The notes beneath the pieces were generated by a model, which searched no databases, had not been told where the DNA came from, and was given only the letters and a program-made list of their open reading frames with translations. Positions 6,960 through 31,451 of a DNA stretch of 53,488 nt are shown piece by piece. The first letter of the stretch is position 1. Each line of letters begins with the position of its first letter. The DNA is from Bacteroidales bacterium (GTDB lineage Bacteria > Bacteroidota > Bacteroidia > Bacteroidales > 4484-276): positions 1 through 53,488 of the forward strand of contig JAOZMX010000003.1 of the NCBI GenBank assembly GCA_029934065.1. Reading direction: 5' to 3'. The position numbers and the translations under genes are program-made.

Positions 6960-7889
6960 TTATGTGTTCATGTCTTTGGCGGAAATGCCGAAAATTTCAT
7001 CCTTTTCAACATTCCCGATCGGTTCAATATGTACAACAACGTCATACACATTGTGAATATTCTTTTTCAGTTCCTGTTCGAGATTACGGGCGATCTGATG
7101 CGCATCGCCAACATTCAGAACGGGATCCACTTCAATATCGAGACCGATTACGTACATGTTGGCCAGTTTTCTCACCCTGACCCGGTGCGGGTTGTTTGCA
7201 CCGCGAACCTGTTCGACCGCATTGAATATTTTAGTGTAGATTTGTTGGTCGCTCACTCCGTCCATCAGTTCCACGTTGGTTTCCATAAAAATGTCGTATC
7301 CGCTTTTCATGATCCATAGGCTGATCAGCAGGGCAAATACGGAATCAATGACCGGCATTTTCAAACCGATGGTAAGTATCAGGCCAAGAAGTACCGAAAG
7401 CGAGATGACCACATCGTTGCGCATGTTCTTGCCGTTAGCAATCAGCATCGGGCTTTCTATTTTACGGCCTGTTTGCAGTAGATAATACGAAAGTGCCGCT
7501 TTGGCAAAAACCGAGAGTATAATAACATAAACGGCGATGGTTTCCGGGATCACTGTGCTGCCGCCCTCAACAAGTTTTTTAACGGTGGAGATGGCCAGTT
7601 GGGCTCCGGCAAAGAAGATGACGAACGACAAGGCCTTGGCGGCAATAGTGTCGGCTTTACGATAACCGTACGGGAATTTCATGTCGGGTGGTTTGGAGAT
7701 GATCCGTGCCGTAAAGAGTGTGATCAGCGAGGTGACGATGTCGCCGGCCGAATCAAGACCGTCGCCCACTACTGCCAGTGAACCCGCGATGAGACCGACG
7801 GCAATTTTCAATACCGCCAGTCCCGCATTGCCTCCCACTGCAATCCATGATGCCCTGATGATTTTTGATGTTCGTTGTTTATCGTTCAT
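6960..7889 (-). CDS. Cation diffusion facilitator (FieF-like) transporter
   Basis: GSLAVVGDGLDSAGD, PPDMKFPYGY, C-terminal dimerisation domain VVVHIEP. ATG at 7889 preferred over TTG at 7901. Confidence 0.9.
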   Translation of the reverse strand: MNDKQRTSKIIRASWIAVGGNAGLAVLKIAVGLIAGSLAVVGDGLDSAGDIVTSLITLFTARIISKPPDMKFPYGYRKADTIAAKALSFVIFFAGAQLAISTVKKLVEGGSTVIPETIAVYVIILSVFAKAALSYYLLQTGRKIESPMLIANGKNMRNDVVISLSVLLGLILTIGLKMPVIDSVFALLISLWIMKSGYDIFMETNVELMDGVSDQQIYTKIFNAVEQVRGANNPHRVRVRKLANMYVIGLDIEVDPVLNVGDAHQIARNLEQELKKNIHNVYDVVVHIEPIGNVEKDEIFGISAKDMNT

Positions 7890-8006
7890 GTTATTTGTCA
7901 AAATCGAGGTAAAAGTAGGAAAAATAAAAGGATAAGAAATGTATGGATTTTTCGCCCTGAAAAAATTTATTGATTTTTCAGCTTATCCCGTTTGGATGTA
8001 TCAGAA

Positions 8007-9584
8007 TCACCACCATTTTTGCCCGCCGTTTTCATTCACCGTAAAGATGCGTTCCTCTTTGTTTGAACCGGTTTTAACAAGCCATAAGAGTGCATTTTCC
8101 GGAGCGTCAAAACACAAGGGCTTTGTCGTTGCGGCAGTTGCCTTGCCAATGCTTTTCCATTCGTTATCCCAGTAAAACAACTCATAGAGTGCTCCGTTTT
8201 CGAAAGCAGCTTCCCTGATTTCATCGGTGGCTTTTACAATGGCGCGACGTGTTGTGGAATACAGCTTGATGGGATGGTAATGAAGCGTATCGGCACACAG
8301 TGTGATGCGGCTTCCCGAATCCGTTAAGATGAAAGGATGGGCTGCCGGAATCAGCTTGCCGTTTTTATAATACGCCGGCAGGTAAACAATATCGCCGCCC
8401 ATATCCGTAAATACCGTCTTTTTGTCGTTGATTTTTCCCCAGTGTATGGCTTTCCATTCGCCCGAATTGAAAACGCACAGATAAGCATAATGAACACTGT
8501 CGGGCGGAGCGAAAAGCAACGGCACACCAACCTGAAACACGGGGATATAATTTTTTGTGACATCCGTGTAATTTTTTCCTGACAGCCAGCGCGGCACCTT
8601 TTCGTATGAAGGTTTCAGCATGGCAAGACAGCTATCCTGCCGGGCAAAAGTCTTACGGTAAACCTTGGCTTTTTTGTTGTTGAGTTTGTATTCACCCGGA
8701 TTATCTCCGTCGCCCATAAAGATAACCACCTGTTTGTTTTGGTCAAGGAGGGCATTCCACGCATGATTGTTTCCTGTGTTGGGCCAGGCCGGTGTGTAGT
8801 CGCTCATCACTGCAATGCCCTGTGCCCGCATGGCATAAATGGCAAGATTTGTCATGTCTTCACAACGCCCCCTTCCGTATTCCAGCATTTCGTCGAGCCC
8901 GAGATCGGTGGGATGCCGGTAAAAAAGCGGATCGAAACGATACCATCCTTTGAGGTCGTCGTTGATCAGGCATGCTGCCTCCACCGGGTCTGCGGGTGTT
9001 TGAACGGAATCCTGTACCCAGCGATATTTGTCATAAAAATAGCCACGCCACGATTCCAAAGGCTCGTTGCTGCCCCGGTAAGGTAAAACATATTCGCAAA
9101 ACTCATCGAAAGTAAGAGATTCAGCCCAGGGCTTTTTCCACGCTTCAAAGGCAAGGTCAATATTTTCGGTAAGAAAATCGTAGGTTATGGTTTCAAGGTC
9201 CTCGATTACCGTGTCGCGTTCAAAATCCATCGCACCGATTTGTGCTTCTGCTGAATCCCATGCTGCAACCATGGTTTGATAATCGGGGTAGGAAAGCACT
9301 GTAAAATCTACCGGACGGCCCGCTGTATCCACCAGTTTCGCTCGCACATAATCATGCCCCTCCATGTTGCCGATAAGAAAATATGCTGCTTTTAACTTTA
9401 ACGAATCACCGGGGTTTTCTGCGTAGTGCGCAATTACCTGCTCCAATGTTTGCCGGTTTTCTTTGGCATTATTCAGCGCATTTTCCACTTTTTCGGGATA
9501 ATGTTGCCGGAAAGAACATCCGGCTGTAAAAAGTAATAGTAAGGATAAAACCCAAATAATTTTTTTGTATTGATTATTTTTCAT
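8007..9584 (-). CDS. Transglutaminase-like domain lipoprotein
   Basis: Lipobox LLFTAGC, FDEFCEYVLPYR..NEPLESWR, catalytic GRCED, NHAWNA. Confidence 0.8.
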   Translation of the reverse strand: MKNNQYKKIIWVLSLLLLFTAGCSFRQHYPEKVENALNNAKENRQTLEQVIAHYAENPGDSLKLKAAYFLIGNMEGHDYVRAKLVDTAGRPVDFTVLSYPDYQTMVAAWDSAEAQIGAMDFERDTVIEDLETITYDFLTENIDLAFEAWKKPWAESLTFDEFCEYVLPYRGSNEPLESWRGYFYDKYRWVQDSVQTPADPVEAACLINDDLKGWYRFDPLFYRHPTDLGLDEMLEYGRGRCEDMTNLAIYAMRAQGIAVMSDYTPAWPNTGNNHAWNALLDQNKQVVIFMGDGDNPGEYKLNNKKAKVYRKTFARQDSCLAMLKPSYEKVPRWLSGKNYTDVTKNYIPVFQVGVPLLFAPPDSVHYAYLCVFNSGEWKAIHWGKINDKKTVFTDMGGDIVYLPAYYKNGKLIPAAHPFILTDSGSRITLCADTLHYHPIKLYSTTRRAIVKATDEIREAAFENGALYELFYWDNEWKSIGKATAATTKPLCFDAPENALLWLVKTGSNKEERIFTVNENGGQKWW

Positions 9585-9598
9585 CACAATAATTTTAA

Positions 9599-12373
9599 TT
9601 ATTCAAAAACAGGTAAAACACATTGGTTGTCAACATTCTTCAATAAAGTTTTAAAATCTTCTTTCAGGCTTCTTCGCATGATGGCAGAATTTTCGTCGTG
9701 GCAGGTAAGACAAGCCCCCACGGTGAGGATTCGTTTTTGTTCTTCGATGGTAAAAGGCCGGAAATCAGGGCGTGTGGAATGTGAAAAAACATTGTTGTAA
9801 AACGTTTTGTTTTCTGCAAATCCGAAAGGCACCCACGCATCTTCCGGCAAACCGTCGTTGGGATTGTCGGCATATTTCGAAACAAATGTCCATGCCGGTT
9901 TCCCATGGCCGGCCAGTTGAAGTACCCCTTCGCCGTATCCCAAAGCCAGCGGGTCGTTATGGCACGATTTGCAGCTTCTTCCTTTTTTCATGATGGTATG
10001 TGGTGCTGCTGGTGCATAAAGGCGATGAAACAACAACGGCTCTTCATCTCCTCCTTCCGGGTAACTTTTCAGGTCAATCGTCAGAATCATTCCGGGGATG
10101 GCAGGTTGAACGGATTTTTGTTTCCCGTCGTCAAAAACTCCGAGTGCAGGTGGGAGTGCTGCATATTCGCCGGTGTATTCAACCCAAGTTCCCTTTTTGA
10201 ACCGGTTGGTTAACATGTCGTATCCTTGGGTTTCGGGTTCGTAAACATTATGACAACCGATGCAACGGGGGGCCCAGGCAGTATGACATGCACTGCAACT
10301 TACATCCTTGTGTGGCCCGCCGCGTGTACATTTTTCGGAGGGAGGTACCAATTGAAAAACCTTACCCGTATTTTTGCCTGTCAGTATTACCGAGTCGTCA
10401 TCAACCAAAAATGTATTCACCAGCGGCCATCCCGATTTTCCAACGGTGAGCATTCTCCCGGAAAGCGTATCCCAATGTCTTAATTTCAGGATTTTTCCGG
10501 ATTCCCCGTCAACGGCGTCGCTTGAAACGGTTTGCGGCAATTCATCAAAATGGCAGTCTTCGCATCTGATCTGTACCTGTTGTTCTTCATGCCGGTAAAA
10601 ATTTCCGTCGCCCATTGTTTCGTAGCCGCTGTGACAATCAATGCAGTTGAGCCCTGCCTGATGGTGAACATCGTCGGCAACGTGAACAAATACCCTGTCG
10701 TCCTGCAGCAAACGGTACCCCGGTTTCCCGGCCACCTCTTCGGCGGTCTTTTGTGTTTCGTGCCACCCTTCGTAATTGGTTGAGATCCTTCCCGACCGGC
10801 TGTGGCAACCGAAACAACGGCTGTCGGGGATGTTGAGGGTCAAAGCGGGATGCACACCGGGGCCGGGCAGGCTGTCTCCTTTGAATTTCGAATATCCGGC
10901 ATGAGCTGCCAGTGCTTTGTCGCTGTAGTTCAAATGGCAGGCGTTGCATCCACCTCCTCTGGAAAGTTCGTCAACCGGGCCTGTTGCCGTTTTCGGATTC
11001 CCAAGGTGGCATATCACACAAAGGTTTTTCAGGTGTTCGTCGGCGGCGGAATTTGTCAGGTGATGCACGTTGTTGAGTGCCGAAAGCGAATCGCATTCCC
11101 CGAAAACAAAACGGTCAACGGTGATCATGCCGCTGATGGTGGTCATCAGTGTAGTGTTGATGCGCCGGGTGACTTCGGGATGGCAGGCCGCCGTGCCGCA
11201 ACTCTTTCCCGCATCCGTCAGATTTCCCGGAATAAGGCGCATATTTTTGTGTGCCCTGTTTTTATCAATAGTAAACGAATTGCCTCCGTGGCATGAGACG
11301 CAACCCAGGGCTTGCGGGTCGTGCGACGGTGAGAAGCCTTTCATGTCGTCATGGCAGATCATGCATCCCTCGGCCCGGCCGTTAACAACAGGCACTCCCT
11401 GCGCAGGCAATTCTTCAATCCGTTCGCCGAATGATACGGGCCGGAACGAAAATGCCTCCGGCAAATAGTCCCCGCCGCCATCCCAGGGTGTCCGCCATTG
11501 CTGGTTTTCACCCCTGAAAAACCATCCAACCACCGTAAACCCGAGATAAAGATAAAACCCGAAAAGAATTGTCTTTTTCAATATTTTCGAATAATTCCCG
11601 GAAACGTACGGGAGAACACCAAGCATCAGCAGGAAGAGGAACATGATGACTAGCGACAAACCGGGAAGAGGTAGCCAATGGAGAATCTCCTGCAAACCGA
11701 CGAAGTACCATGGGCCTCTCATAATATTGTTTAAATTTTCACCCAGCGGAGCACCGAACAGCCAGCTTATTGCCAGAATTGTCAGTAGGGTGTAAATAAA
11801 TGTCTTTGTCTTTCCGTAAATGGTTCCCGAATGCTCGATAATGATGATGAAAAGGAAAATGGTTGCCGTTGCAATATGATGTACATAGATCAGTTGAAGA
11901 CCATTCCCGTTGCCAAACAGAGAAAATGCCAGCAGGTTGCCGGCAAGGGGGATTTGGGAAATAAGGCTTTGCATGATCTGTCTTGCCTGCGTTGCGTCGT
12001 TGTCCGCTTTTAGAATAAAGCCGGTGATCATAACAAATAACGCCACCAAAACCGAGACGGTCAGCCGCAGCCACACACCATATTTTACTTTTTTCTCGCC
12101 GGAGCGTTTCAGGTGATCCCAGATGTGTAAAAATGTGAAGACAAGAAAAAACTGTGCACTCCAGTAATGAATGTTCCGGATGAATACGGCATACGGGTTG
12201 AGGATAAGCATGGCCCCCAGCGATTGGTATGCGGCTTTTACATCGTAAGGTATGGCAAGAAATATCCCGCTGACGACGGCAATGAAAAAAGCAGCCAAAG
12301 CAATGGCTCCGAAAGTGTTCTCACGAAAAAACGTTTTTATTTCAGTTAGTCGTAGCCCCACGGTTTTTTTCAA
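9599..12373 (-). CDS. Cytochrome b (Rieske/cytb type, ~7 TM) fused to a C-terminal multiheme cytochrome c domain (11 CxxCH + 1 CX4CH)
   Basis: Helix B RNIHYWSAQ...LHIW and helix D HH...EH heme-b ligands, Qo-like RGPWYF. Heme-c motifs: CMICH, CVSCH, CGTAACH, CVICH, CNACH, CFGCH, CIDCH, CEDCH, CSACH, CIGCH, CKSCH, CLTCH. The TTG start overlaps the Rieske stop. Confidence 0.9.
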   Translation of the reverse strand: MKKTVGLRLTEIKTFFRENTFGAIALAAFFIAVVSGIFLAIPYDVKAAYQSLGAMLILNPYAVFIRNIHYWSAQFFLVFTFLHIWDHLKRSGEKKVKYGVWLRLTVSVLVALFVMITGFILKADNDATQARQIMQSLISQIPLAGNLLAFSLFGNGNGLQLIYVHHIATATIFLFIIIIEHSGTIYGKTKTFIYTLLTILAISWLFGAPLGENLNNIMRGPWYFVGLQEILHWLPLPGLSLVIMFLFLLMLGVLPYVSGNYSKILKKTILFGFYLYLGFTVVGWFFRGENQQWRTPWDGGGDYLPEAFSFRPVSFGERIEELPAQGVPVVNGRAEGCMICHDDMKGFSPSHDPQALGCVSCHGGNSFTIDKNRAHKNMRLIPGNLTDAGKSCGTAACHPEVTRRINTTLMTTISGMITVDRFVFGECDSLSALNNVHHLTNSAADEHLKNLCVICHLGNPKTATGPVDELSRGGGCNACHLNYSDKALAAHAGYSKFKGDSLPGPGVHPALTLNIPDSRCFGCHSRSGRISTNYEGWHETQKTAEEVAGKPGYRLLQDDRVFVHVADDVHHQAGLNCIDCHSGYETMGDGNFYRHEEQQVQIRCEDCHFDELPQTVSSDAVDGESGKILKLRHWDTLSGRMLTVGKSGWPLVNTFLVDDDSVILTGKNTGKVFQLVPPSEKCTRGGPHKDVSCSACHTAWAPRCIGCHNVYEPETQGYDMLTNRFKKGTWVEYTGEYAALPPALGVFDDGKQKSVQPAIPGMILTIDLKSYPEGGDEEPLLFHRLYAPAAPHTIMKKGRSCKSCHNDPLALGYGEGVLQLAGHGKPAWTFVSKYADNPNDGLPEDAWVPFGFAENKTFYNNVFSHSTRPDFRPFTIEEQKRILTVGACLTCHDENSAIMRRSLKEDFKTLLKNVDNQCVLPVFE

Positions 12374-12765
12374 TCAATGATAATTTTATTGTTTTCCAGC
12401 TTAAACGGAAGTTGCTGTAAATTTTCCGTTGCGGGGCCATTCTCCGGCTCCCCGTTAATATTAAATGCCGAGCCGTGGCAGGGACAAACCAGGTTCCCTT
12501 CCTTGTTGAGGCTTTTGATCGTACAGCCGAGATGGGTGCAACGCGAGGAAAAAACAGTTAATTTGTCGTTTCTCCGGACGATGATGACCCGGCCGAAAAA
12601 AGAGACGCCTTCGGGAACATCAGCCGGCAGCACCATGCGATTTGGAGTTCCGGAACGGGTTGCTCGTTTAACCAGCATTACCCACAACCAAAAAAAAAGG
12701 ATGGAAAGGGCACCCCACAGATATTTTAAAAAAATTTTTCTCGGTATTTTTTTTGTCTCTTCCAT
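12370..12765 (-). CDS. Rieske [2Fe-2S] subunit of a Rieske/cytochrome b complex
   Basis: CTHLGC and CPCHGS boxes; Tat-like RKIFLK followed by one TM helix. Confidence 0.92.
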   Translation of the reverse strand: MEETKKIPRKIFLKYLWGALSILFFWLWVMLVKRATRSGTPNRMVLPADVPEGVSFFGRVIIVRRNDKLTVFSSRCTHLGCTIKSLNKEGNLVCPCHGSAFNINGEPENGPATENLQQLPFKLENNKIIID

Positions 12766-12785
12766 TGGCAAAAATCAATGAGTGC

Positions 12786-12793
12786 CAAAAGTA
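12786..12793 (-). promoter_or_regulatory. Bacteroidota -7 box (TACTTTTG) for the Rieske-cytb operon
   Basis: TAnnTTTG match 20 nt upstream of the Rieske ATG. Confidence 0.55.
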
Positions 12794-12932
12794 CAAATCA
12801 TTTTCGGACAGCAACTAAACAGACAAAAATGAAATTTATATTCTTTCCAAATTATTATTTTAATCTGTTGAAATAGCGTGTTTTAAAAACCAACATCATT
12901 TTTTGATTTTTTAACAAAATGGTCGTATTGTT

Positions 12933-12966
12933 TTGATTCACAATGAATTTTCATTCAATGAATCAA
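12933..12966. promoter_or_regulatory. Nested inverted repeat, candidate operator between the divergent promoters
   Basis: TTGATTCA...TGAATCAA outer arms enclosing AATGAA-TT-TTCATT. Confidence 0.4.
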
Positions 12967-13003
12967 TCTGGTGATTAAAATTCGTTTTTTGCAAAAAAGT
13001 AAG

Positions 13004-13011
13004 TATGTTTG
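13004..13011 (+). promoter_or_regulatory. Bacteroidota -7 box (TATGTTTG) for the psr operon
   Basis: TAnnTTTG match ~42 nt upstream of the psrA ATG. Confidence 0.55.
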
Positions 13012-13053
13012 CATTGACCTATTTACATATTCATCATACTAAATTTAATATTG

Positions 13054-15318
13054 ATGACAACACGACGAGATTTCATTAAGGTCGTAACGGCAGGTACAGG
13101 AGCTGCAGCATTAGGGTTAAGTGTTCTTGATGTGAAGGGGATGGGAAGTATTTTCGGGGGTGATGAACCGGAACCTGTAAGTGACACCAAACTAAAGCGA
13201 TATCCGACTTATTGCGAGGTGTGTTTTTGGAAATGCGCAGGCTGGACATATGTTGACGACAAAGGAGCGATTAAAAAGATCCTCGGCAACAAAGAGGACC
13301 CGCATTGCAACGGGCGATTGTGTCCGCGCGGGACAGGTGGAATAGGCATGTATTATGATGAGGATCGACTGAAGACGCCGTTGATCCGTGAAGAAAAAGA
13401 CGGTAAGCAGTATTTCAGGGAAGCCTCATGGGAAGAAGCCCTTGAATTGACCGCCAGGCGGTTGAAGGAGGTGGCGGAGAGACATTCGCCGGAATGCATT
13501 GCATTGTTCAACCACGGTTCGGGCGGGAAATATTTCGGGACGCTGCTCAAGGCTTTCGGCTCGGAAAATATTGCCGCTCCGTCGTTTGCCCAGTGCCGCG
13601 GGCCGCGCGAAACCGGCTGGATCGCCACTTTCGGACAGGCGGTAGGATCGCCCGAGCCCACCGATATCCGCGATACCAACTGCCTTGTGCTCATTGGCTC
13701 ACATCTCGGCGAGAACATGCACAACGGGCAGGTACAGGAGATGTCGGAGGCCATCGAACGCGGCGCAACCATTATCACCGTTGACCCGAGGTTTTCAACT
13801 GCAGCAAGCAAATCAAAGTATTGGTTGCCCATCAAACCGGCGACGGATATGGCTTTGCTGTTGGCGTGGATACACGTACTGATCTATGAAGAGATTTATA
13901 ACAAGAAATATGTGGAAAAATATACCTACGGGTTCGACTTGCTGAAAGAACATGTGAAAGATATGACGCCGGAATGGGCTTACGGTATTACAACCATCGA
14001 GCCGGCTGTGATCAGGAAGACGGCACGCGAGATGGCCGATGCCGCACCCTCGGTCATTGTTCATCCCGGAAGGCATGTCACCTGGTATGGCGACGACACC
14101 CAGCGTACCCGTGCCATTGCCATTCTCAATGCCTTGCTCGGCTCATGGGGCAACCGCGGTGGTTTTTACATGAGCGAAAAGGTACACATTCCCCATCAGA
14201 AACTGCCGCCGTTTCCCAAACCCAAGCGAACCTGGCGTGATGCATTTCCGGGACAATACAAGCTGGCCAGCCTCGCCCTCTCCTCGGGGATTTGCGATGC
14301 CACCATCCCCACCGACGACAGGGATTGCTCTTTCAAAGCGTGGATCGTTTCGGGGACCAACCTGCCATTGACATTACCCAATAAAAAGAATACCCTCGAA
14401 GCCATCTCGCACCTTGAGTTCATAGTGGTCATTGATACCATGCCCATGGAGATCACCGGTTATGCCGATGTGATCCTGCCCGAATGTACCTACCTTGAAA
14501 GGTATGACCTGCTTCGCACCTCGGGACATCGCGAGCCGTACATCGCCCTGCGTATGCCGGCAGCCGAACCCAAATACAATACCAAACCGGGATGGTGGAT
14601 CGCCAAAAATCTGGCCAATAAACTCGGATTGGGGGAATATTTCCCGTACGACGATATTACCGAGGTTTTGGACTGGCAACTGAAGCAGATGGGCTCTTCG
14701 CTGGAAGAGATGAAGAAGATCGGTGTGAAAAAATTCGACCGTCAGGAAGGAGGGCTTTATTTCCAGGAAGGCGAGGACATTGAATTCAATACTCCAACCG
14801 GGAAGATCGAACTTTGGTCCAACGAAATGGCCGCAGAGAATTATGATCCCATGCCTGTTTATACACCTCATCCCGAACCGGAAGAGGGCTTTTACCGCCT
14901 GATCTACGGCCGTGCGCCCATGCATACCTTCAGCCGTACATCCAACAACCACAATCTCTGGGATTTGAAAAAGGAAAATGAAGTATGGGTTAATCCCAAA
15001 GTTGCCAAGTTGTGGGATTTGAACAACGGCGACAAGGTCTGGCTCAAAAATCAGGATGGCATTGTCTCCTCTTTTCCCATCAAGGTCAGGGTTACCGAAC
15101 GCATTCGTTGGGATTCGGTGTACATGGTGCATGGCTTCGGCCATTCCGACAAATTTCTGACACGGGCATACGGCCATGGCGCCAACGATTCCGAGCTGAT
15201 CACCAATGTGATGATCGACCCGGTGATGGGAGGAACCGGAATGAGGGGGAATTTTGTGACATTTTTAAAAGAAAAACCGAAAAATATGGAAAATTCAGGG
15301 AAGGAGGTTAAAGCATGA
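13054..15318 (+). CDS. psrA: Polysulfide/thiosulfate reductase catalytic molybdopterin subunit (PsrA/PhsA family)
   Basis: Tat signal TRRDFIK, [4Fe-4S] motif CEVCFWKC...LCPRG, Mo-ligand region PSFAQCRGPR, ADVILPECTYLER, HTFSRT; followed by PsrB/PsrC-like genes. Confidence 0.85.
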   Translation: MTTRRDFIKVVTAGTGAAALGLSVLDVKGMGSIFGGDEPEPVSDTKLKRYPTYCEVCFWKCAGWTYVDDKGAIKKILGNKEDPHCNGRLCPRGTGGIGMYYDEDRLKTPLIREEKDGKQYFREASWEEALELTARRLKEVAERHSPECIALFNHGSGGKYFGTLLKAFGSENIAAPSFAQCRGPRETGWIATFGQAVGSPEPTDIRDTNCLVLIGSHLGENMHNGQVQEMSEAIERGATIITVDPRFSTAASKSKYWLPIKPATDMALLLAWIHVLIYEEIYNKKYVEKYTYGFDLLKEHVKDMTPEWAYGITTIEPAVIRKTAREMADAAPSVIVHPGRHVTWYGDDTQRTRAIAILNALLGSWGNRGGFYMSEKVHIPHQKLPPFPKPKRTWRDAFPGQYKLASLALSSGICDATIPTDDRDCSFKAWIVSGTNLPLTLPNKKNTLEAISHLEFIVVIDTMPMEITGYADVILPECTYLERYDLLRTSGHREPYIALRMPAAEPKYNTKPGWWIAKNLANKLGLGEYFPYDDITEVLDWQLKQMGSSLEEMKKIGVKKFDRQEGGLYFQEGEDIEFNTPTGKIELWSNEMAAENYDPMPVYTPHPEPEEGFYRLIYGRAPMHTFSRTSNNHNLWDLKKENEVWVNPKVAKLWDLNNGDKVWLKNQDGIVSSFPIKVRVTERIRWDSVYMVHGFGHSDKFLTRAYGHGANDSELITNVMIDPVMGGTGMRGNFVTFLKEKPKNMENSGKEVKA

Positions 15319-15848
15319 GATACGCAATGGCCATAGATACCACGAAATGCGTGGGGTGTGGTGACTGTGTGGTTGCCTGCCAGACCGAAAATAATGTGCC
15401 GCACGGATATTGCCGCGACTGGATCGTGGAAAACGTTGCCGGCACCTATCCCAACGTGGAGATTGAATTGCGGTCGGAACGATGCAACCACTGCGATAAT
15501 GCACCCTGTGTGAGATGTTGCCCCACAGGCGCCAGCCATATCGTTGAAGGCGGGATCGTGATGGTAACACACGAGGAATGTATCGGTTGCGGCGCCTGCA
15601 TCGAATCCTGTCCTTACGATGCGCGGTATTCCCATCCCGAAGGATATGTGGATAAGTGTACTTTCTGCAAACACCGGATCGACAACGGTCAGTTGCCGGC
15701 CTGCGTTGAGGTGTGTCCTACAAAATGCCTCTATTTCGGCGACCTCGACGATCCCAACTCCGATGTGTCGAAAGCACTGCAAAACCGGAAATGGAAAGTG
15801 CTGGCTCCCGAAGCAGGAACAAAACCACAACTCTATTTTCTTACCTGA
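15315..15848 (+). CDS. psrB: 4x[4Fe-4S] electron-transfer subunit (PsrB/NrfC family)
   Basis: CVGCGDCVVAC, CNHCDNAPCVRCCP, CIGCGACIESCPY, KCTFC...PACVEVCP; ATGA overlap with psrA. Confidence 0.88.
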   Translation: MRYAMAIDTTKCVGCGDCVVACQTENNVPHGYCRDWIVENVAGTYPNVEIELRSERCNHCDNAPCVRCCPTGASHIVEGGIVMVTHEECIGCGACIESCPYDARYSHPEGYVDKCTFCKHRIDNGQLPACVEVCPTKCLYFGDLDDPNSDVSKALQNRKWKVLAPEAGTKPQLYFLT

Positions 15849-15872
15849 TCTTAACTTAAAGCAATTGAGACA

Positions 15873-16814
15873 ATGAAAGAAGAATTATTTGTCAGCGGTC
15901 GTGATATTCCCAATATCGATCCGTATCTGAACATTTGGCATTGGCAAATCCCGCTTTACCTCTTTCTCGGGGGTCTGGCCGCCGGAATCTTGTTTTTTGC
16001 CGGTTATTACACCATTTTGCGCAAAGAAAAAGAGATGGAAGCCACGGTGAAATGGGCTCCGTTTCTGGCGCCTTTCGCACTGGTGCTGGGCTTGTTTGCC
16101 CTGTTTCTCGACCTGAAGCACAAACTCTATTTCTGGCAGCTTTACACCACGGTGCGTTTCACTTCTCCCATGTCGTGGGGAGCATGGACGCTGATGCTCA
16201 TCACACCCATTTCTTTTATCTGGGCTGCAAGTTACATCAAAGAAGTGTTCCCCAAATGGGACTGGAAATTTGATGTTCTTAACAGGTTCGAGGCGTATAT
16301 CATCAAAAACCGTAAAGGGATTGCGTGGATCATGATGATCCTTGCTGTCATTCTCGGCGTTTATACCGGAATACTTCTTTCGGCGTTCAACGCACGGCCT
16401 TTGTGGAACACCTCCATACTGGGGCCGCTGTTCCTCGTCTCGGGACTCTCCACGGGGCTGGCAGCCATCATGCTGATGTCAAAAAGCAAGTACGAACGCA
16501 AAGTGGTAAGCCGGCTCGATCTGATCATGATCGCCGTCGAACTGTTTCTGATCATTCACCTGTTCATGGGTTTTTTGGCCGCTTCGGAAGTGCAGGTGGA
16601 AGCTGCAGCCCTGTTCCTCGGCGGAGACTTCACCGCGGTTTTCTGGATTTTCGTCATTTTCCTCGGACTTGTTTTCCCGGCCGTACTCGAGGTACTTGAA
16701 CTTCGGGGATACCATATCCCTGTATGGATTCCGGCGGTGTTGATTCTTATAGGAGGACTCGTTTTCAGATTTGTAATGGTTGAAGCCGGCCAAATAACGC
16801 GGTTTTTATATTGA
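15873..16814 (+). CDS. psrC: NrfD/PsrC family membrane anchor (quinone-interacting)
   Basis: WHWQIPLYLFLGGLAAG, LFLDL, TSPMSWGAW, YTGILLS...RPLWN; about 8 TM helices. Confidence 0.88.
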   Translation: MKEELFVSGRDIPNIDPYLNIWHWQIPLYLFLGGLAAGILFFAGYYTILRKEKEMEATVKWAPFLAPFALVLGLFALFLDLKHKLYFWQLYTTVRFTSPMSWGAWTLMLITPISFIWAASYIKEVFPKWDWKFDVLNRFEAYIIKNRKGIAWIMMILAVILGVYTGILLSAFNARPLWNTSILGPLFLVSGLSTGLAAIMLMSKSKYERKVVSRLDLIMIAVELFLIIHLFMGFLAASEVQVEAAALFLGGDFTAVFWIFVIFLGLVFPAVLEVLELRGYHIPVWIPAVLILIGGLVFRFVMVEAGQITRFLY

Positions 16815-16836
16815 TTCACTTTAAAGAAATTAAACA

Positions 16837-17376
16837 ATGAATAAAAACACAAAGATTAAAAACGGGCCAAGGTACATCAACCCTTATCTCGGAGGTATTT
16901 TGCTCGGCCTGTTGCTGCTGGCCACATTTTTTATTGCCGGACGCGGCCTGAGTGCCAGCGGGGCGGTCAAACTTTCCATCGTGACCATCGTTGACAAGAT
17001 CGCGCCGTCGCATGCCATGGCCAACGGATATTACAGCAAATTCATCCCTGCCGACGGCTCTTCGCCATTGTTCAACTGGTTGATATTTGCCGCCATCGGC
17101 ACTTTTTTCGGAGGGATGTTATCAGGAGCGATTTTCGGGCGACTTAAAAAATTCAGGATTGAGCACGCGCCCACCGTCTCCTCAAGAACACGCATCATCG
17201 CCGCCATCATCGGAGGTATTCTCTTCGGCATCGGAAGCCAGTTTGGCCGCGGTTGCTCCAGTGGCGCCGCATTGAGTGGCACCGCTTCTTTTTCATTTGG
17301 CGGTCTGATCGTGATGCTGCTGATGTTCGGCATCGGATACGCCTTTGCTTATTTCTTCAGAAAATTATGGATATAA
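16837..17376 (+). CDS. YeeE/YedE sulfur-compound transporter, half-size subunit 1
   Basis: NPYLGG, GRGLSASG, GGILFGIGSQFGRGCSSG (GCxSG motif). Confidence 0.85.
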   Translation: MNKNTKIKNGPRYINPYLGGILLGLLLLATFFIAGRGLSASGAVKLSIVTIVDKIAPSHAMANGYYSKFIPADGSSPLFNWLIFAAIGTFFGGMLSGAIFGRLKKFRIEHAPTVSSRTRIIAAIIGGILFGIGSQFGRGCSSGAALSGTASFSFGGLIVMLLMFGIGYAFAYFFRKLWI

Positions 17377-17391
17377 TTAAAAATTGACGAT

Positions 17392-17997
17392 ATGGGACCT
17401 TTAATTCCTCAGGGATATATCACAGGACAATGGGAATTTGTCATCGCCCTTTTGATCGGGGCGGCTTTCGGCTTTTTGCTCGAATCCTCGGGATTTTCTT
17501 CTTCAAGAAATATCGCCGGCGTCTTTTACGGATACAATTTTGTGGTGCTCCGTGTATTTTTTACGGCGATGATCGTGGCCATGGTCGGGCTGTTGTATTT
17601 CGACTACCTCGGCTGGATTGACATGAGCATGGTATTTGTACTGCCCACCTTTCTTGCGCCGATGCTGCTCGGCGGTTTCATCATGGGGCTTGGGTTTGTC
17701 ATCGGCGGCTTTTGCCCCGGAACCAGTTACACCGCATGCGCCATCGGAAAACTCGACGGGTTTGCTTTCCTCGGTGGTTTCTTTCTCGGGGTATTCCTCT
17801 TTTCCGAGGCTTTTCCGTTGTTCGAAAAGTTTTATTACTCGGGAGATATGGGAAACATCACCATCGGCGAAGTGCTGCATGTGTCCGACAGGGTGGTTGC
17901 TTTTGCTTTTGTTGTCATCGCCATCGCGGCTTTTTATGTGACCTGGCTTATTGAAAAGAAAGTCAGAGCAAACAGAACAGAATCAAAATTTGAATAA
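17392..17997 (+). CDS. YeeE/YedE sulfur-compound transporter, half-size subunit 2
   Basis: GAAFGFLLESSGF and LGGFIMGLGFVIGGFCPGT motifs. Confidence 0.85.
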   Translation: MGPLIPQGYITGQWEFVIALLIGAAFGFLLESSGFSSSRNIAGVFYGYNFVVLRVFFTAMIVAMVGLLYFDYLGWIDMSMVFVLPTFLAPMLLGGFIMGLGFVIGGFCPGTSYTACAIGKLDGFAFLGGFFLGVFLFSEAFPLFEKFYYSGDMGNITIGEVLHVSDRVVAFAFVVIAIAAFYVTWLIEKKVRANRTESKFE

Positions 17998-17999
17998 TC

Positions 18000-18614
18000 A
18001 TGAATAAGAATTATTTATTTCTTTCGCTTTTGATGATATTGCTGGCAGGCGGGTTGTTGTTGCTCCCCGACAGGACGAATTATTCACAAATCCCGCCCGA
18101 AGATCTGTTGTGGGATATTATCCAGCCCACGCGTTATGTTACCACCGAACAGGTGGCAAAGATGATCATCGAACAGGATCCCACGCTTGAACTGATTGAC
18201 GTGAGGGATGCCGATGCCTTCAAAGCTTTTTCGCTGCCCAACGCCGTCAACATTCCGTTGGATAGCCTGTTGTCGCCAAACTATTCCGATTATCTCGGCA
18301 TCGAAGACATGAACGCCGTTTTTTACGCCAACGACGACATGCTGGCCGATCAGGCCTGGGTGATTGCCAAAAGACTGAACTATTCGGGAATTTATGTCAT
18401 GAAAGGCGGCCTCAACTGCTGGATAAAAACCATCATTCAGCCTGCACCGCCGCCCGAAACCGCCTCACTCGACGCGTTCGATCTTTACGATTTCAGAAAA
18501 GGAGCCAGCATATACTTTACGGGCAAAACCATTACGGCGCCCAAATCCGATAACAAATCCAAAGTTATTGTCCGCAGAAAGAAAAAAACCAAAGCCACTG
18601 CCGGCGGTTGTTAG
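18000..18614 (+). CDS. Membrane-anchored rhodanese-like protein lacking the canonical active-site Cys, with a C-terminal GGC tail
   Basis: N-terminal TM; LIDVR..F...SLPNAVNIP; active-site loop VFYANDD; MKGGLNCW; ends RRKKKTKATAGGC. Confidence 0.85.
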   Translation: MNKNYLFLSLLMILLAGGLLLLPDRTNYSQIPPEDLLWDIIQPTRYVTTEQVAKMIIEQDPTLELIDVRDADAFKAFSLPNAVNIPLDSLLSPNYSDYLGIEDMNAVFYANDDMLADQAWVIAKRLNYSGIYVMKGGLNCWIKTIIQPAPPPETASLDAFDLYDFRKGASIYFTGKTITAPKSDNKSKVIVRRKKKTKATAGGC

Positions 18615-18645
18615 TCAATTTGTTAACAAAAAAAATCAACAAACG

Positions 18646-19200
18646 ATGTCCAATAAACACGTACACGAAACAAATCCCAAAAGAACCGTTATCGTAATGG
18701 TCATTTTCGTTGCCGTTATTGTGGCCGGCCTGCTCTCGCTCAAAACGCCGCGCCTCACTTATGTGCTGACGCCTGAACAGACGCTCGCCCTGGTGACCGG
18801 CGGAGAGGGGTGTGTTCACCCTTATCAGCTTGTCCCCGTGCTCAACGGTACGGTGGATACGGTCATCCTCATCGACATTCGCAACAAATTCGAATTCGGC
18901 AAGGGACATATCAAGGGCGCCGAGAACATTTCGGCCTACGACCTGACCAACGAAGAGAATATCGCCCGACTGAAAGAATTCAAAAAAAATGGTATGGCAG
19001 TGGTGCTTTACGGCAACACCCAACTGGAAGCCAACGGCCCGTGGATGGTTTTCAGGCAGCTCGGATTCGACAACGTGATGCTGCTGCTGGGCGGATACCG
19101 GTATTACGCCCTGCACAAACACAATCTTGCAGCAACAAAGGGCGACAAAAGTTATCTTCCCGGAATGGCGGATTTCAACTATGCCGAAGTGGCAAAATGA
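18646..19200 (+). CDS. Second membrane-anchored rhodanese-like protein, also lacking the active-site Cys
   Basis: TM segment; LIDIRNKFEFGKGHIKGAENI; loop VLYGNTQ; LGFDNVMLLLGGY. ATG at 18646 avoids overlap with the upstream gene. Confidence 0.85.
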   Translation: MSNKHVHETNPKRTVIVMVIFVAVIVAGLLSLKTPRLTYVLTPEQTLALVTGGEGCVHPYQLVPVLNGTVDTVILIDIRNKFEFGKGHIKGAENISAYDLTNEENIARLKEFKKNGMAVVLYGNTQLEANGPWMVFRQLGFDNVMLLLGGYRYYALHKHNLAATKGDKSYLPGMADFNYAEVAK

Positions 19201-19271
19201 TGCTTTGACGTTCTCCCGCCATCTTCCATGCCGGATAATCGGTACAAAATTTTCATTCCGTTTTATTTTTT

Positions 19272-19430
19272 GGGCGGCAACCGCGTGCTCCGTTATAGCT
19301 GTGTGCCTGCAAGGCCGTGTTCCGCTGCGGCGTGCGGGGGCTCATTTCAATCGCCTCCGCCGCCGTGCTCCACATCGGCCCGCAGGCACACAGGCTGCCA
19401 CTCCGCCCGCTGCCGCAGCACTACGCGTTA
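19272..19430. repeat. Long GC-rich nested inverted repeat (REP/MITE-like or structured RNA)
   Basis: Perfect 12-bp arms CTGTGTGCCTGC (19299-19310) / GCAGGCACACAG (19382-19393), with inner GGCCG/CGGCC and CGGCG..GCGG/CCGC..CGCCG stems and outer GGGCGG/CCGCCC. Confidence 0.6.
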
Positions 19431-19460
19431 ACAAGAATCCACAAACCCCATCTAAAATCA

Positions 19461-19541
19461 ACCCGCCTTCGCCAAGGCTTCGGCGGGCGGGGAAATCGTT
19501 AATCTGAAATCTGCAATCTGCAATCTGCAATCCCCAATCCT
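19461..19541. repeat. REP-like palindrome followed by a degenerate 7-bp tandem repeat
   Basis: CCCGCCTTCGCCAAGGCTTCGGCGGGCGGG, then about 7 copies of (C/A/T)AATCxx (AAATCGT TAATCTG AAATCTG CAATCTG CAATCTG CAATCCC CAATCCT). Confidence 0.6.
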
Positions 19542-19668
19542 TTCGTTTCTCCGCCTTGATATCAATTTAACAGAAAACATCCCCCGGCCAAAGCAACCAT
19601 TATCGTCAAACGGTGTCTGATAGGTATATTTCATGATGTTATCATATCACTTCATAAAACTTACTCAA

Positions 19669-22600
19669 ATGAAATTACGCAATATTTTACGTTTAACAGT
19701 GCTTCCGGTATTTTTTCTTTTTTTGGTCATCAACAGTTCCGCCCAGGGCTGGCGCCCCCATGAGATGGAGGTGAAAGTGGAACTGGCGGATCGCTCAGAT
19801 GCCCAAATGCTGAATGATTTGCATCTTATCGGAGACATTTATATCAAGTATGCCCTGATGTACGTAACGCCCGACGAGTTGCAGCGCATCAAAGAAACGG
19901 GACTTCGTTACGAGATTACCAAACCCGACCTCAATGTCTGGGCGGCAGATTTTCTGGAAAATCGCGACGAATACCACTCTTACGAAGAAACCCTCGAACT
20001 GATGGACAGCCTTGCCGATAATCTCCCCGGCCTCGTTATGAAGGTTGTTTACGGCGAATCGATACAGGGGCGACAGTTGTCGGCCCTCAAGATCAGTGAT
20101 AATGTAACCGTGGACGAGCCCGAACCCGAAATGGCTTTCGATGCCAACATCCACGGCGACGAGATTGGAGCATGCGAAAATGCCATCCGCTTTGCCCGCT
20201 GGCTTTGTCAGCAGTACGGCAACAACCAGGAGATCACCGACCTTGTCGACTCCCGCGAGATATGGATCTATCCGTTGGTGAACCCCGATGGCCGCGAAGC
20301 GCTGACACGCTACAACGCAGCCGGAATCGACCTCAACCGCGACTGGGGCTACCTCTGGGGCGGCGACGGCAACAGCCCGTCTCCCTTTTCGCAGCCCGAA
20401 TCCAAAGCCCTGCGACAAATGGTACTCGATAACCAGTTTTCCATCCAGATGACCTTTCACAGCGGTATCGAACTTTTCCTTTATCCGTGGTACAACCGTA
20501 CCGACAACTGCCCCGACTATGCCGAGGTTACCCAACTGGCGGATGTTTATTCCAGTACCTCGGGATACGGCAACCTGCAGAGCGGGCCGGGAACCTCGCT
20601 CTATCCCACCACGGGAACCACCGCTGAATCCTATTACGGTATCATGGGTTCCGACGGCATCGTGCTGGAAATATCCAACAACAAACAACCTCCGCCTTCG
20701 CAAATCGGTTATTATTTCTCCATCAATATCAATCCGATGGTGAAAATGATTGAATACGCCGGTTATGGTGTGGAGGGTACGGTAACGGATGCCGGAACGG
20801 GAGACCCTGTGGCGGCAGTCGTTTACGTGGGTAATACGCTCCCCTGCTATGCCGACCCTCTGGTGGGCGATTTTCATAAATTCGTTATGCCAGGCACCTA
20901 TAACGTCAAGGTGAAAGCCAACGGCTATCAGACAAAAATCATCAATGATGTCACGGTGAATGCATTGAGTGCCGTCACGGTTGACGTGGCACTGGAACCC
21001 GAAGAGCACCAAAGCATCTACCGCATCATCGCCTCCATGATACCCGGCGGCAGCAATACGGCCGACGAAGGCACCTCGTGGGATGCCATCGGCCCGCCCG
21101 ACAATCTGAATTATTCGCTGGGGAAAGCCGGCTGGATGGTGTTTGATATGCAGGAACTCGTCGTAAACGGCGAAGGGGACGACCTCATCGTTTTCGAAGG
21201 CGACGAAAGCCCCGAAGGATTTACCATTTATGCCGGAAGCTCCATGGACGGCCCGTGGCAGTTGCTTGGCGAAGGCGAAGGGACCACCCAGTTTGATCTC
21301 GGCGAATGTGCCCTCAACGAAGCCCGCTATTTCAAAATCGAAGATGACGGCGACGGCAATGCCAATGTGGCCGATGCCGGATTTGACCTCGATGCGGTGC
21401 AATCCATGAGCTCCCTCTCCGGCCCTTACCTTCTGATATCACAGATTGTTGTGGATGACCAGGCGGGCAATGCCAACGGCCAGCTCGACCCCGGCGAAAC
21501 GGCTGATTTTGAAATTACACTGAAAAATATCGGTACCGAGGATGCGCTGAATATCGAGGGAACACTCACTTGTGCCGATCCGCTTATCACCGTCGGTACC
21601 CCGGGAGCACAATCATACGGCAACATTCCGACGGGAGAGACCTCAACAGCAACTTTCACCGTCAGCGCCGACGAGCAGATACCTGCCGGACACACAAGCG
21701 TCCTCGAGCTTGCTTATAGCGGAGATAACGGCTTGTCGGGAGTTAAGAATTTCGAGATTACCTTTCCCGACTATTGTTTCCCGACGGCCAACTGCTCCTA
21801 CGGCGACGGATTTACCGGATTCTCCCTGGAAAGTATCGACAACATGAACAGCGGATGCAGCGATGGCGGCTACGGCGATTTTACGGACATGAGCACCGAT
21901 TTGACGGCAGGTGAAACCTACACCGTGTCGTGGGAAACGGGATACTCCAATCAGGAAGCCTCCTTGTGGATCGATTTGGATGATGATATGGAATTTGAAC
22001 CGGAAGAGTTGTTGATCACCGATTTCAATCTGGAAAATTCCGGTCAGGTTTATACGACGGATTTTACGGTTCCCGGAAATGCTTCACCGGGAGAGAAACG
22101 TTTGCGTATCAGAGCCAACTGGCAGAACTCGTCGGCTGATCCCTGCGCGGACTTTACCTATGGCGAAACGGAAGACTACACCGTGAATGTCATTTCGGGC
22201 GGCTACATGCAACCTGCTTTCACGGCCGATCAAACCGAAATTTGTCAGGGTGATGAAGTGCAATTTACCGATAACTCGACGGGAAACATCACCTCGTGGT
22301 CATGGGAATTCCCCGGCGGAGACCCTTCTGCCTCTTCCGAGCAGAACCCGCTGGTGACTTACGAAAATCCCGGCTCCTTTGATGTAACGTTAACCGTCTC
22401 CGACGGACAGACTACTCAGAGCGTTACCCATGAAAATTACATTACCGTGAATGCGCTGCCCGAAGTTACTTTCGGCGAGATCGAAGACATGTGCATCAAC
22501 TGGCCGCCGCAAGAGTTAACGCAGGGAGCACCCGAAGGCGGCATCTATTCGGGCCCCGGTGTGTCCAACGGCTTTTTCGATCCTGCGCAGGCCGGATTGG

Positions 22601-30947: not shown

Positions 30948-31031
30948 TTTTTAACTTTTTAAATTTAAATAAATAGAATGATATTAATTATTTATTGCTA
31001 CATTAAAAGTAGTATTAAATGCTAAAGAAAA

Positions 31032-31451
31032 TCAATATTTCATCACCCCCGTTTGTTTCAAATCTTCGAGGGTGGTCGTTTTAAGTGTTTTTAAAAAGCT
31101 TGCTTTGTGTTTTGCCCATACAAAATGCAGCGCACAAGGGTTATCATCCGAGCATTCGCTGAATCCGAGAATGCAGGAATTGAGGCTGTTCATGCCTTCA
31201 ACGGCTTCGATGATCTTGGCCAATGTGATTTCGTTAAGCTTTTTGATGATCTTAAAACCGCCGTCCCTTCCCTGAATGCTAACAAGCAATCCTTCATTGG
31301 ATTTTGCCAACTTTGTCATCAGCCTTGTTAAGTATTTATAGGGAATATTAAGCTGTTCATGGATGTATTTTGCCGTGAACAACTCCCGGTCCTGATTGGC
31401 CATAAATATCAAAACCCTTACTGCGTATTCTGTTGTTTTTGTTAAAATCAT
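31032..31451 (-). CDS. Rrf2 family transcriptional regulator (Fe-S type), probable NO-responsive regulator of nor
   Basis: TEYAVRVL, wHTH IPYKYL, SIQGRDGGF, ITLAKIIEAVEG, CILGFSECSDDNPCALH. ATG 31451 preferred because a TACTTTTG box lies at 31462-31469. Confidence 0.9.
   Translation of the reverse strand: MILTKTTEYAVRVLIFMANQDRELFTAKYIHEQLNIPYKYLTRLMTKLAKSNEGLLVSIQGRDGGFKIIKKLNEITLAKIIEAVEGMNSLNSCILGFSECSDDNPCALHFVWAKHKASFLKTLKTTTLEDLKQTGVMKY

Follow-up and report, generated by a model that had tools for sequence, protein, structure and literature searches.

We analysed a 53,488-nt stretch of DNA from a Bacteroidales bacterium (contig JAOZMX010000003.1 of assembly GCA_029934065.1, positions 1 to 53,488; hereafter the window) and focused on a divergent locus at positions 9599-19200, in which a Rieske/cytochrome b complex with twelve c-type hemes lies back to back with a polysulfide reductase-type (Psr) operon. 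The left arm, on the minus strand, consists of a Rieske gene (12370-12771; 133 amino acids (aa), PF00355) and an open reading frame (ORF) for a fusion of cytochrome b with a 12-heme domain (9599-12373; 924 aa, PF00033 plus c-type heme domains). The end of the Rieske ORF overlaps the start of the fusion ORF by 4 nt, and the two genes are probably translationally coupled via this overlapping TTGA. The right arm, on the plus strand, comprises psrA for the molybdenum-bis(pyranopterin guanine dinucleotide) catalytic subunit of the Psr/Phs clade (13051-15318), psrB for a four-cluster, ferredoxin-like electron-transfer subunit (15315-15848; PF13247), psrC/NrfD for a heme-free membrane quinol subunit of the NrfD type (15873-16814; PF03916), two YeeE/YedE half-proteins with Sulf_transp domains (16837-17376 and 17392-17997; PF04143), and two proteins with rhodanese domains (PF00581), Rhd1 (18000-18614) and Rhd2 (18568/18646-19200). 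ORF listing and domain scans confirmed a first-pass annotation, made from the letters of the DNA, as to the positions of the nine genes, of the 12 heme sites and of the 288-nt spacer. The spacer (12772-13050) holds TAnnTTTG boxes and an inverted repeat; counted from the listed TTG starts it is 279 nt long, and counted from the first ATG of either arm (12765 and 13054) it is 288 nt long. The locus is built of known kinds of parts: an operon of the Psr/Phs type, a bc-type complex and a cytochrome of the ExtM family. A partial literature search found no description of a cytochrome b-12-heme fusion beside psrABC or of rhodanese-like proteins with a C-terminal -GGC, so that the fusion family, its one-sided dependence on Psr and the -GGC tail on a rhodanese-homology scaffold all appear to be undescribed.

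The fusion protein joins two modules. Residues 1 to ~300 form a complete cytochrome b core of seven helices with a b6-type and a subunit-IV-like part (Cytochrome_B match, aa 20-177), and residues ~321-924 form an ExtM-like dodecaheme domain with a beta-rich insert, which is expected to face the periplasm because seven helices are predicted. Its heme sites are eleven CxxCH motifs and one CGTAACH (aa 392-398). In a MAFFT alignment of 61 orthologs, taken as every second match among ~119 sequences of 880-960 aa, all 12 heme motifs were 100% conserved and the b-heme histidines H69/H83 and H166/H181 were invariant with b6-type spacing, while two additional non-heme cysteines, C682 and C918, were kept in 100% and 98% of the sequences, respectively. 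Also invariant is a GPWYF at aa 220-224, which was aligned to PEWY by eye and occupies what we take to be the place of this Qo-site motif, which is known in variants. The Rieske protein (PF00355, 52 bits) has an N-terminal anchor with a Tat-like (twin-arginine translocation) motif, (S/T)-R-(K/R)-x-F, and the [2Fe-2S] boxes CTHLGC and CPCHGS, whose six Cys/His residues are kept in 66/66 locus orthologs; its gene lies directly upstream of the fusion in 66/69 loci. The two proteins together display the hallmarks of a bc-type complex, with Rieske ligands and the disulfide Cys pair on one side and two cytochrome b His pairs in helices B and D on the other. An AlphaFold2 model of the full-length fusion (predicted local distance difference test score, pLDDT, 77.5) aligned in Foldseek over ~310-340 columns to bc1 cytochrome b. 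The heme domain modelled separately with a pLDDT of 85.8 and a predicted template modelling score (pTM) of 0.86; a fold search of this model against the PDB gave 0 matches at E<=1e-3 and weak beta-propeller-like hits only, and a sequence search of the fusion against the PDB gave nothing beyond cytochrome b6 and cytochrome b. The fusion family is large: of 8000 database clusters scored, 1410 matched at E<=1e-3, and its members are annotated only as hypothetical, DUF4405 or 'cytochrome b N-terminal domain' proteins.

On the opposite arm, PsrA is a Tat-exported protein; it carries a twin-arginine motif (RRDFIK), the Cys group C55/C58/C62, an N-terminal 4Fe-4S site and the Pfam domains Molybdopterin, Molydop_binding and Fe4S4. 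Its best PDB match, over the full length, was Thermus thermophilus PsrA (2vpw_A, 655 bits; next match 171 bits). C182 aligns with C173 of the T. thermophilus enzyme, which we take to be the molybdenum ligand, and H145 and R332, to which we likewise ascribe roles in that enzyme, are also kept. Among NCBIfam models PhsA scored best (461 bits, under its cut-off of 694), while ArrA (126-150 bits) and TtrA were far lower. Because of the Thermus PsrA and NCBIfam scores, we assign PsrA by sequence to the Psr/Phs clade of complex iron-sulfur molybdoenzymes; the sequence does not reveal its substrate. PsrB (PF13247, 83 bits) contains 19 cysteines, including four CxxCxxCxxxC-type groups, and is 44-97% identical across loci, and PsrC (PF03916, 167 bits) is devoid of cysteines. 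The genes for the four-cluster iron-sulfur subunit and the heme-free NrfD-type subunit are contiguous in the operon.

To see how far the two arms belong together, we inspected the 10-kb flanks of 69 loci found through a fusion-based search. psrA lay within 10 kb of the fusion in 44/69 loci: in 32 it is the direct divergent neighbour, in four it is divergent but separated by an insert of 2-7 kb (a further locus has a psrA fragment at the edge of the contig), in six it follows downstream on the same strand, and in one the arrangement is another. It was absent from the fetched stretch in 22 loci, and three loci were too partial to judge. Six of the 22 had almost no upstream sequence and 16 had an upstream flank of at least 4 kb; 15 of these 16 genomes were searched, and a PsrA homolog was present in 15/15, with at least 64% identity in 11 and, in 4/15, with psrA just past the 10-kb flank, apparently on the same contig. 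In a sample of 251 genomes of the order, the fusion was found in 16 and a PsrA ortholog in 75, with both in 15/16 fusion carriers; the sole fusion without PsrA is a 113-aa fragment in a contaminated assembly, and PsrA was present in 60/235 genomes without the fusion (Fisher p = 6e-8; at genus level 10/11 genera, p = 5e-5, related genomes not being independent). Among 301 genomes sampled across the phylum, the 12-heme protein occurred in 10 and PsrA in 41, with both in 10/10 carriers of the heme protein, and 8/9 carriers besides the source genome of the window had both genes on one contig within ~4 kb. Fusion-Psr adjacency spans Bacteroidales, Ignavibacteria-type lineages and one Spirochaetota metagenome-assembled genome (MAG), in three gene orders. 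Co-occurrence and synteny, the check that the first-pass annotation had proposed, show a linkage of the two arms that goes far beyond chance, usually in an adjacent, divergent position. The arrangement, which recurs in dozens of genomes, exceeds chance.

The linkage is one-sided. The psrABC-yeeE-yeeE-rhd order was intact in 12/12 Psr-only loci examined. Because PsrA occurs mostly without the fusion (60 of the 75 PsrA-positive genomes of the order sample), whereas the fusion nearly always occurs with PsrA, the right arm is autonomous and the left arm dependent, which does not agree with the initial picture of two equal halves. Moreover, some lineages have the heme protein without the cytochrome b part: in 5/9 other carriers of the phylum sample, the 12-heme protein stands alone, measures 624-663 aa and bears an anchor at its N-terminus. 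In L111-L114, the stand-alone 12-heme gene (for 634-655 aa) lies beside psrABC-yeeE-yeeE(-rhd) with no Rieske/cytochrome b gene nearby, and its other neighbours encode MobA, MerR and unrelated proteins. When five genomes of the stand-alone type were searched with PF00033, two gave no match, both rated 100% complete. Hence, the conserved partner of Psr is the ExtM-like 12-heme cytochrome, and the Rieske/cytochrome b part is an input that was added and fused in some lineages. The first-pass annotation had inferred a co-regulated circuit of both arms through the quinone pool. A loop through Rieske/cytochrome b cannot be the core of the partnership, because the stand-alone 12-heme genes reside beside psr without cytochrome b, in two genomes without any. 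These comparisons of gene content rather point to a direct redox or substrate coupling of the dodecaheme cytochrome and Psr.

The same data bear on a reverse mode of the locus, the first option of the first-pass annotation, in which Psr would oxidise sulfide, polysulfide or thiosulfate and the Rieske/cytochrome b-12-heme complex would re-oxidise menaquinol outward to a metal, an oxyanion or S0. Rieske/cytochrome b complexes naturally pass quinol electrons to a higher-potential periplasmic chain, and some carriers are presumably facultative anaerobes. ExtM-type cytochromes occur in specialists of extracellular electron transfer (PMC5877670). However, the Psr-YeeE-Rhd operon does without such an outlet in those 60/75 PsrA-positive genomes, quinol re-oxidation cannot be the shared function where a stand-alone 12-heme gene lies beside psr in genomes without cytochrome b, and neither the window nor the multiheme inventory of the source genome revealed an outer-membrane multiheme conduit. 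We therefore regard the reverse mode as very unlikely.

The remaining genes of the right arm suggest how sulfur might be handled. The YeeE/YedE pair is a split protein whose two genes cover complementary halves of the PF04143 profile (310 positions): YeeE1 corresponds to its C-terminal half (65 bits, positions 176-306) and YeeE2 to its N-terminal half (52 bits, positions 3-161). Against the TsuA equivalog model the pair, split into two genes, reached 22-24 bits with cut-offs of 400-645. The Cys of RGC(T/S)S in YeeE1 is kept in 48/48 and the Cys of GG(F/Y)CPG in YeeE2 in 45/45 aligned orthologs. Rhd1 (PF00581, 50 bits) and Rhd2 (53 bits) both have the rhodanese fold. They had been described as 'Cys-less rhodaneses', which holds for the active-site position in the loop behind the central strand (A in Rhd1, G in Rhd2; assigned by eye from the motif) but overlooks a cysteine at the very C-terminus of Rhd1. 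At the active-site position, 37/38 locus orthologs of Rhd1 have S or A and 1/38 has Cys, whereas 38/38 end in GGC or GGCS. The -GGC end was also found in 120/120 top database homologs, whose final 20 residues contain 6.25 K/R on average. Rhd2 ends in GGC in 21/23 aligned orthologs, and the Rhd2 of the window and that of L010 are without it. Directly after the tail-less Rhd2 gene of the window lies a GC-rich non-coding stretch with three CTGCAAT repeats (19201-19630), which may mark the event that removed the KKKK...GGC tail.

Since the N-terminal anchor is followed by an acidic flank, the rhodanese domains are likely to face the periplasm. SoxY and DsrC carry sulfur substrates between enzymes on a Cys of a flexible C-terminal arm, beside glycines. 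By analogy, we propose that the -GGC tail of Rhd1 is a covalent sulfur-carrier arm, and the invariant cysteines of the split YeeE pair would fit a thiol relay. The proposed likeness to SoxY and DsrC concerns the arm; the proteins here combine a rhodanese-homology scaffold with an N-terminal membrane anchor and a polybasic arm that ends exactly in -GGC. Such an invariant tail provides a hypothesis for how insoluble or labile sulfur might be presented to Psr and would recast seemingly dead rhodaneses.

We next compared the left arm with the ext gene cluster of Geobacter, a resemblance that the first-pass annotation had suggested. The cluster extHIJKLMNOPQS encodes a rhodanese (ExtH), a porin (ExtI), ExtKL, cytochromes with 12 (ExtM) and 10 (ExtN) hemes, a Rieske protein (ExtO), a cytochrome b (ExtP), ExtQ and ExtS (PMC5877670); ExtKL is identical with MccSep, a polysulfide reductase (a selenoprotein with five hemes) that is indispensable to S0 respiration and is encoded in one operon with ExtM (PMC13510729). 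Residues 326-903 of the fusion matched the ExtM model (NF040943) end to end (263 bits, E 4.8e-78, model positions 11-588 of 599). The resemblance thus stands for the heme domain, but as that of a distant relative and not of a member of the ext family. Both systems have a Rieske protein, a b6-type cytochrome b and a 12-heme cytochrome; in Geobacter (Cbc6 plus MccSep), the cytochrome b (ExtP) has a small membrane partner (ExtQ), and the cluster is tied to a polysulfide-reducing terminal enzyme. In addition, weak counterparts of the rhodanese ExtH and of the phosphate-porin-like ExtI are encoded next to the fusion in relatives and, in the source genome, on contig C158. In contrast to ext, cytochrome b, the subunit-IV part and the 12-heme domain form one polypeptide here, and a molybdoenzyme, PsrABC, accompanied by YeeE and GGC proteins, takes the place of the heme selenoenzyme as partner reductase. 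Should the ExtM-like cytochrome prove to be a dedicated Psr partner, the ExtM/Cbc6 proteins of Geobacter, as yet without an assigned function, would share a role across phyla, and a single scaffold for electron delivery would serve exchangeable terminal reductases, MccSep there and the molybdoenzyme here. The source genome encodes a second, stand-alone ExtM-like cytochrome (C3:1951-4434, L092; 827 aa, 11 CxxCH, ExtM 185 bits) with no adjoining respiratory genes. We also noted that the NCBIfam model NF040968 'FeS_ExtO' scored 660 bits on a 10-heme ExtN protein (L105:7892-9187) and not on the Rieske protein of that cluster, so that its name seems to be a misfit.

Several other systems provide precedents. 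The right arm resembles PsrABC of T. thermophilus and Wolinella succinogenes (PDB 2VPW-2VPZ) in its full-length PsrA match, four-cluster PsrB and NrfD-type PsrC, and differs in that the operon is extended by the split YeeE pair and GGC-tailed rhodanese-homology proteins and that some of the genomes couple it to a dodecaheme cytochrome like ExtM. No soluble sulfur transferase of the Sud type, which we presume to be the relevant comparison, was identified. For the exchange of electrons between multiheme c-type cytochromes and an NrfD-anchored four-cluster subunit, NrfABCD, NhcABCD, QrcABCD, alternative complex III (ACIII) and MccACD set a precedent (PMC8076601). Unlike in these NrfD-family complexes, the gene for the heme protein here lies on the strand opposite to psr, no structural relative of the protein has been solved, and its contact with PsrB is a candidate one. 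A complex prediction for the heme domain and PsrB, run with no controls, scored 0.00 against a mark of 0.32 and speaks neither for nor against binding. In Caldithrix abyssi, a Nap/epsilon-Hao cluster contains a Rieske/cytochrome b module proposed to feed multiheme cytochromes (PMC5317091). As at our locus, the module is part of the gene cluster of a molybdoenzyme that acts in the periplasm and is already served by a quinol dehydrogenase of its own; the Caldithrix acceptors nitrate and nitrite are, however, of high potential and the tetra- and octahemes are separate proteins, as opposed to 12 fused hemes and a Psr-type enzyme here.

These observations together led us to a model to which we give an even chance, namely that the locus belongs, as one branch, to an island for chalcogen respiration that faces the periplasm, with polysulfide or sulfur derived from S0 as the most likely substrate. 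PsrABC would serve as the molybdoenzyme reductase and receive electrons from menaquinol via PsrC, the split YeeE pair would move sulfur species across the inner membrane, and one or two membrane-anchored rhodanese-homology proteins that have lost the catalytic Cys would hold the substrate covalently on the -GGC arm. Some lineages would have recruited the ExtM-like 12-heme periplasmic cytochrome to serve Psr as its dedicated redox partner. In the window, the left arm would represent a menaquinol:dodecaheme oxidoreductase complete in itself, with parts homologous to ExtO/ExtP/ExtQ/ExtM (Cbc6), in which electrons pass from menaquinol to the Rieske protein, along the 12-heme chain and on to the Psr system or the carrier-bound substrate. 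It would thereby open a second route from the quinone pool alongside PsrC, from which energy conservation may follow. What the parts are, how they are conserved and that the genomic dependence is one-sided follows from the data, whereas the substrate, the carrier role of the -GGC arm, the heme acceptor and the direction of flow are what we infer. A second input is plausible because Psr catalysis is endergonic and depends on the membrane potential, and because NrfD-family complexes often carry a multiheme subunit on the PsrB-like protein (PMC8076601). A more far-reaching version, in which the c-type arm of a bc-type complex is replaced by an ExtM-like dodecaheme domain docking on PsrAB, a Q-cycle supplies or supplements the menaquinol-to-polysulfide step, and the substrate is not free polysulfide but sulfur on rhodanese -GGC arms that act as SoxY-like swinging arms in a reductive pathway, is unlikely. 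As an alternative within this version, C682 and C918 could make the cytochrome itself a reductase of the carrier persulfide that stands in for MccSep. Psr-type operons are common in anaerobic Bacteroidales (75/251 sampled genomes), sulfur intermediates are important in sediments and guts, and cultured carriers exist with Mangrovibacterium lignilyticum (L062, where the divergent cluster is complete) and Rosettibacter primus (L044).

A number of results weigh against the model of a sulfur-respiring Psr system with a dedicated heme partner. Psr can do without the left arm, as the genomes with PsrA and no fusion demonstrate. No remnant of the KKKK...GGC tail was found downstream of the Rhd2 gene of the window, where this tail is lost. 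In a quick PsrA tree, the fusion-linked sequences grouped together (two changes of the label versus a shuffled mean of 10.8), which contradicts an earlier guess from identities that fusion-linked PsrAs are not distinct from Psr-only ones; shared ancestry and the choice of rows alone may explain this grouping, since the fusion rows were fetched via the fusion from all phyla and the Psr-only rows were the best-scoring hits of one order. The likeness to ext also stays below equivalog level throughout. The 263 bits for ExtM compare to a cut-off of 800, and the cytochrome b of the fusion reached 64 bits on the ExtP model (NF040969; cut-off 290), less than the two other cytochromes b of the source genome (220 and 188 bits). 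ExtKL/MccSep (NF040886) had no match at E<=0.001 in the source genome, which is 95% complete and has no open frame with 3-7 CxxCH motifs. Neither ExtH nor ExtI is encoded in the window; their relatives on contig C158 scored 25 and 26 bits and those in L035 65 and 45 bits, respectively, all below the cut-offs (ExtH 25-65 versus 200, ExtI 26-45 versus 150 bits). No protein here attained the ExtN cut-off of 200 bits, the fusion scoring 39, and no ExtS-family match was found among the window proteins. By comparison, all parts of a genuine ext cluster in a Desulfobacterota genome scored far above the window proteins (ExtH 483, ExtI 718, ExtKL 425+90, ExtM 1084, ExtN 653, ExtP 218, which is under its own cut-off of 290, and ExtS 345 bits).

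Energetics add to these objections. The potential of a bc-type Rieske centre is normally well above that of the polysulfide/sulfide couple, so that a flow from Rieske to heme to polysulfide is doubtful, barring unusual potentials or a substrate of higher potential. Furthermore, Melioribacter roseus has a MerR-psrABC cluster, and its growth was stimulated by arsenate but not by S0, thiosulfate or sulfite (PMC3534657), and psrA was induced by arsenate (PMC5492636). The Rieske potential, the M. roseus data and the sub-threshold ext scores thus allow for the same architecture acting on arsenate or on selenite/tellurite, with the YeeE and GGC proteins handling selenium or thio-arsenic species. The higher potentials of these acceptors would suit a Rieske/cytochrome b Q-cycle, the NCBIfam titles of ExtM, ExtH and ExtI assign these families to a 'selenite/tellurite reduction operon', and the best NCBIfam match of YeeE1 is the selenium protein YedE/FdhT, at 26 bits only. 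Likewise, published studies implicate ExtI in selenite and tellurite reduction (PMC5877670), report turnover of selenite by MccSep (PMC13510729) and hold that the specificity of Psr/Phs enzymes is unreadable from their sequence (PMC3534657). In contrast, the 655 bits of PsrA to the T. thermophilus polysulfide reductase, with its active-site residues kept, far exceed the ArrA scores, octaheme tetrathionate reductase (OTR)-family proteins and many rhodaneses surround the fusion in relatives, and the M. roseus evidence comes from a distant branch, as Melioribacteraceae PsrA is only ~52% identical to PsrA of the window. We consider a non-sulfur substrate rather unlikely on balance.

The neighbourhood of the fusion in relatives raised the question whether the two arms could instead be independent respiratory units that were brought together by shared Crp/Fnr-type control or island transfer, with the 12-heme protein serving other acceptors such as OTR octahemes. 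Crp/Fnr regulator genes are present in 31/69 fusion loci, and an OTR-family octaheme gene together with a PhsC-like cytochrome b in 8-10/69. In L026, L032 and L034, an OTR-family octaheme gene and not psrA is the immediate divergent neighbour of the Rieske gene. In addition, the source genome has two OTR clusters on other contigs, and the arms were on different contigs in three genomes of the order sample. Speaking against independent units are the near-complete nesting of the heme protein in Psr-positive genomes (15/16 and 10/10), an adjacency that persists from Bacteroidales through Ignavibacteria-type lineages to a Spirochaetota MAG in three gene orders, and stand-alone 12-heme genes directly beside psrA. 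We judge this explanation to be unlikely as well. A triad of an ExtH-like rhodanese, an ExtI-like phosphate-type porin and a two-domain rhodanese was found between or beside the two arms in 14-15/69 fusion loci and in 0/12 Psr-only loci. Together with the OTR-family octaheme genes, it gives the surroundings of the fusion a sulfur theme, which counts in favour of the sulfur-respiration model.

The OTR regions showed further features. Between the Rieske and OTR genes of L026 and L032, a conserved protein of ~240 aa is encoded (L026:8670-9404 and L032:8767-9489) that has no Pfam or NCBIfam match. One OTR cluster of the source genome (C158:3621-11070; L096, L109) contains genes for a Crp/Fnr regulator, an OTR-family octaheme (585 bits), a PhsC-like cytochrome b-PAS protein and two rhodaneses and ends with the phosphate-type porin (ExtI 26 bits) and the two-domain rhodanese (ExtH 25 bits) mentioned above; modules of this type (OTR/cytochrome b-PAS/Rhd/Rhd/porin/Rhd) sit between psr and Rieske/fusion in other genomes. 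PhsC/Ni_hydr_CYTB-family b-cytochromes with one to two PAS domains, each adjoining an OTR octaheme, are encoded at C96:6494-7825, C158:6132-7289 and L026:5178-6716, and these PAS-fused proteins may be membrane redox sensors instead of plain quinol dehydrogenases.

The spacer between the arms had been thought to hold a TAnnTTTG box on each strand and a central palindrome as signs of joint control. Both boxes are present, at 12786-12793 on the minus and 13004-13011 on the plus strand, but the motif is not enriched across the window (41 matches versus 36.5 +/- 6.1 expected; 25/100 shuffles reached 41). Only their positions, at a plausible distance upstream of each arm, are noteworthy, and these are suggestive. 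Similarly, the palindrome exists as a perfect 8-nt inverted repeat with arms 18 nt apart (TTGATTCA, 12933-12940, and TGAATCAA, 12959-12966), but the 32 orthologous spacers have no palindrome in common, and a conserved operator in the spacer was accordingly dropped as a candidate. TTGA-N-TCAA sites, scanned without a background control, are scattered in the orthologous spacers, and several relatives have a Crp/Fnr gene between psrA and the Rieske gene.

Finally, Rieske/cytochrome b complexes had been assumed to be unusual in anaerobic Bacteroidales. They are not rare here, as the source genome alone holds at least three. A second one (C164:7740-13646; L095) combines a Rieske protein (144 aa) and a cytochrome b6/subunit-IV protein (347 aa, ExtP 220 bits) with a Hao-like octaheme and NapA, in the same arrangement as in the Nap cluster of Caldithrix abyssi; NapA is represented by two ORFs (9332-10531 and 7740-9311) and is split, frameshifted or affected by an assembly error. 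A third cytochrome b (C32:9-3889, L094; ExtP 188, ExtQ 47 bits) is cut by the contig start; next comes a protein of 752 aa that combines 8 CxxCH motifs with tetratricopeptide (TPR) repeats at its C-terminus. Elsewhere in the window, a quinol-type nitric oxide reductase of 748 aa (28701-31460; COX1 plus a NorB cytochrome c-like domain) adjoins an Rrf2-family regulator, and tails for sorting by the type IX secretion system (T9SS), which along with the names of related MAGs assign the organism to Bacteroidales, were observed on an M14 carboxypeptidase (19633-22947) and on two gingipain-like C25 peptidases of 1995 and 1561 aa (36248-47053).

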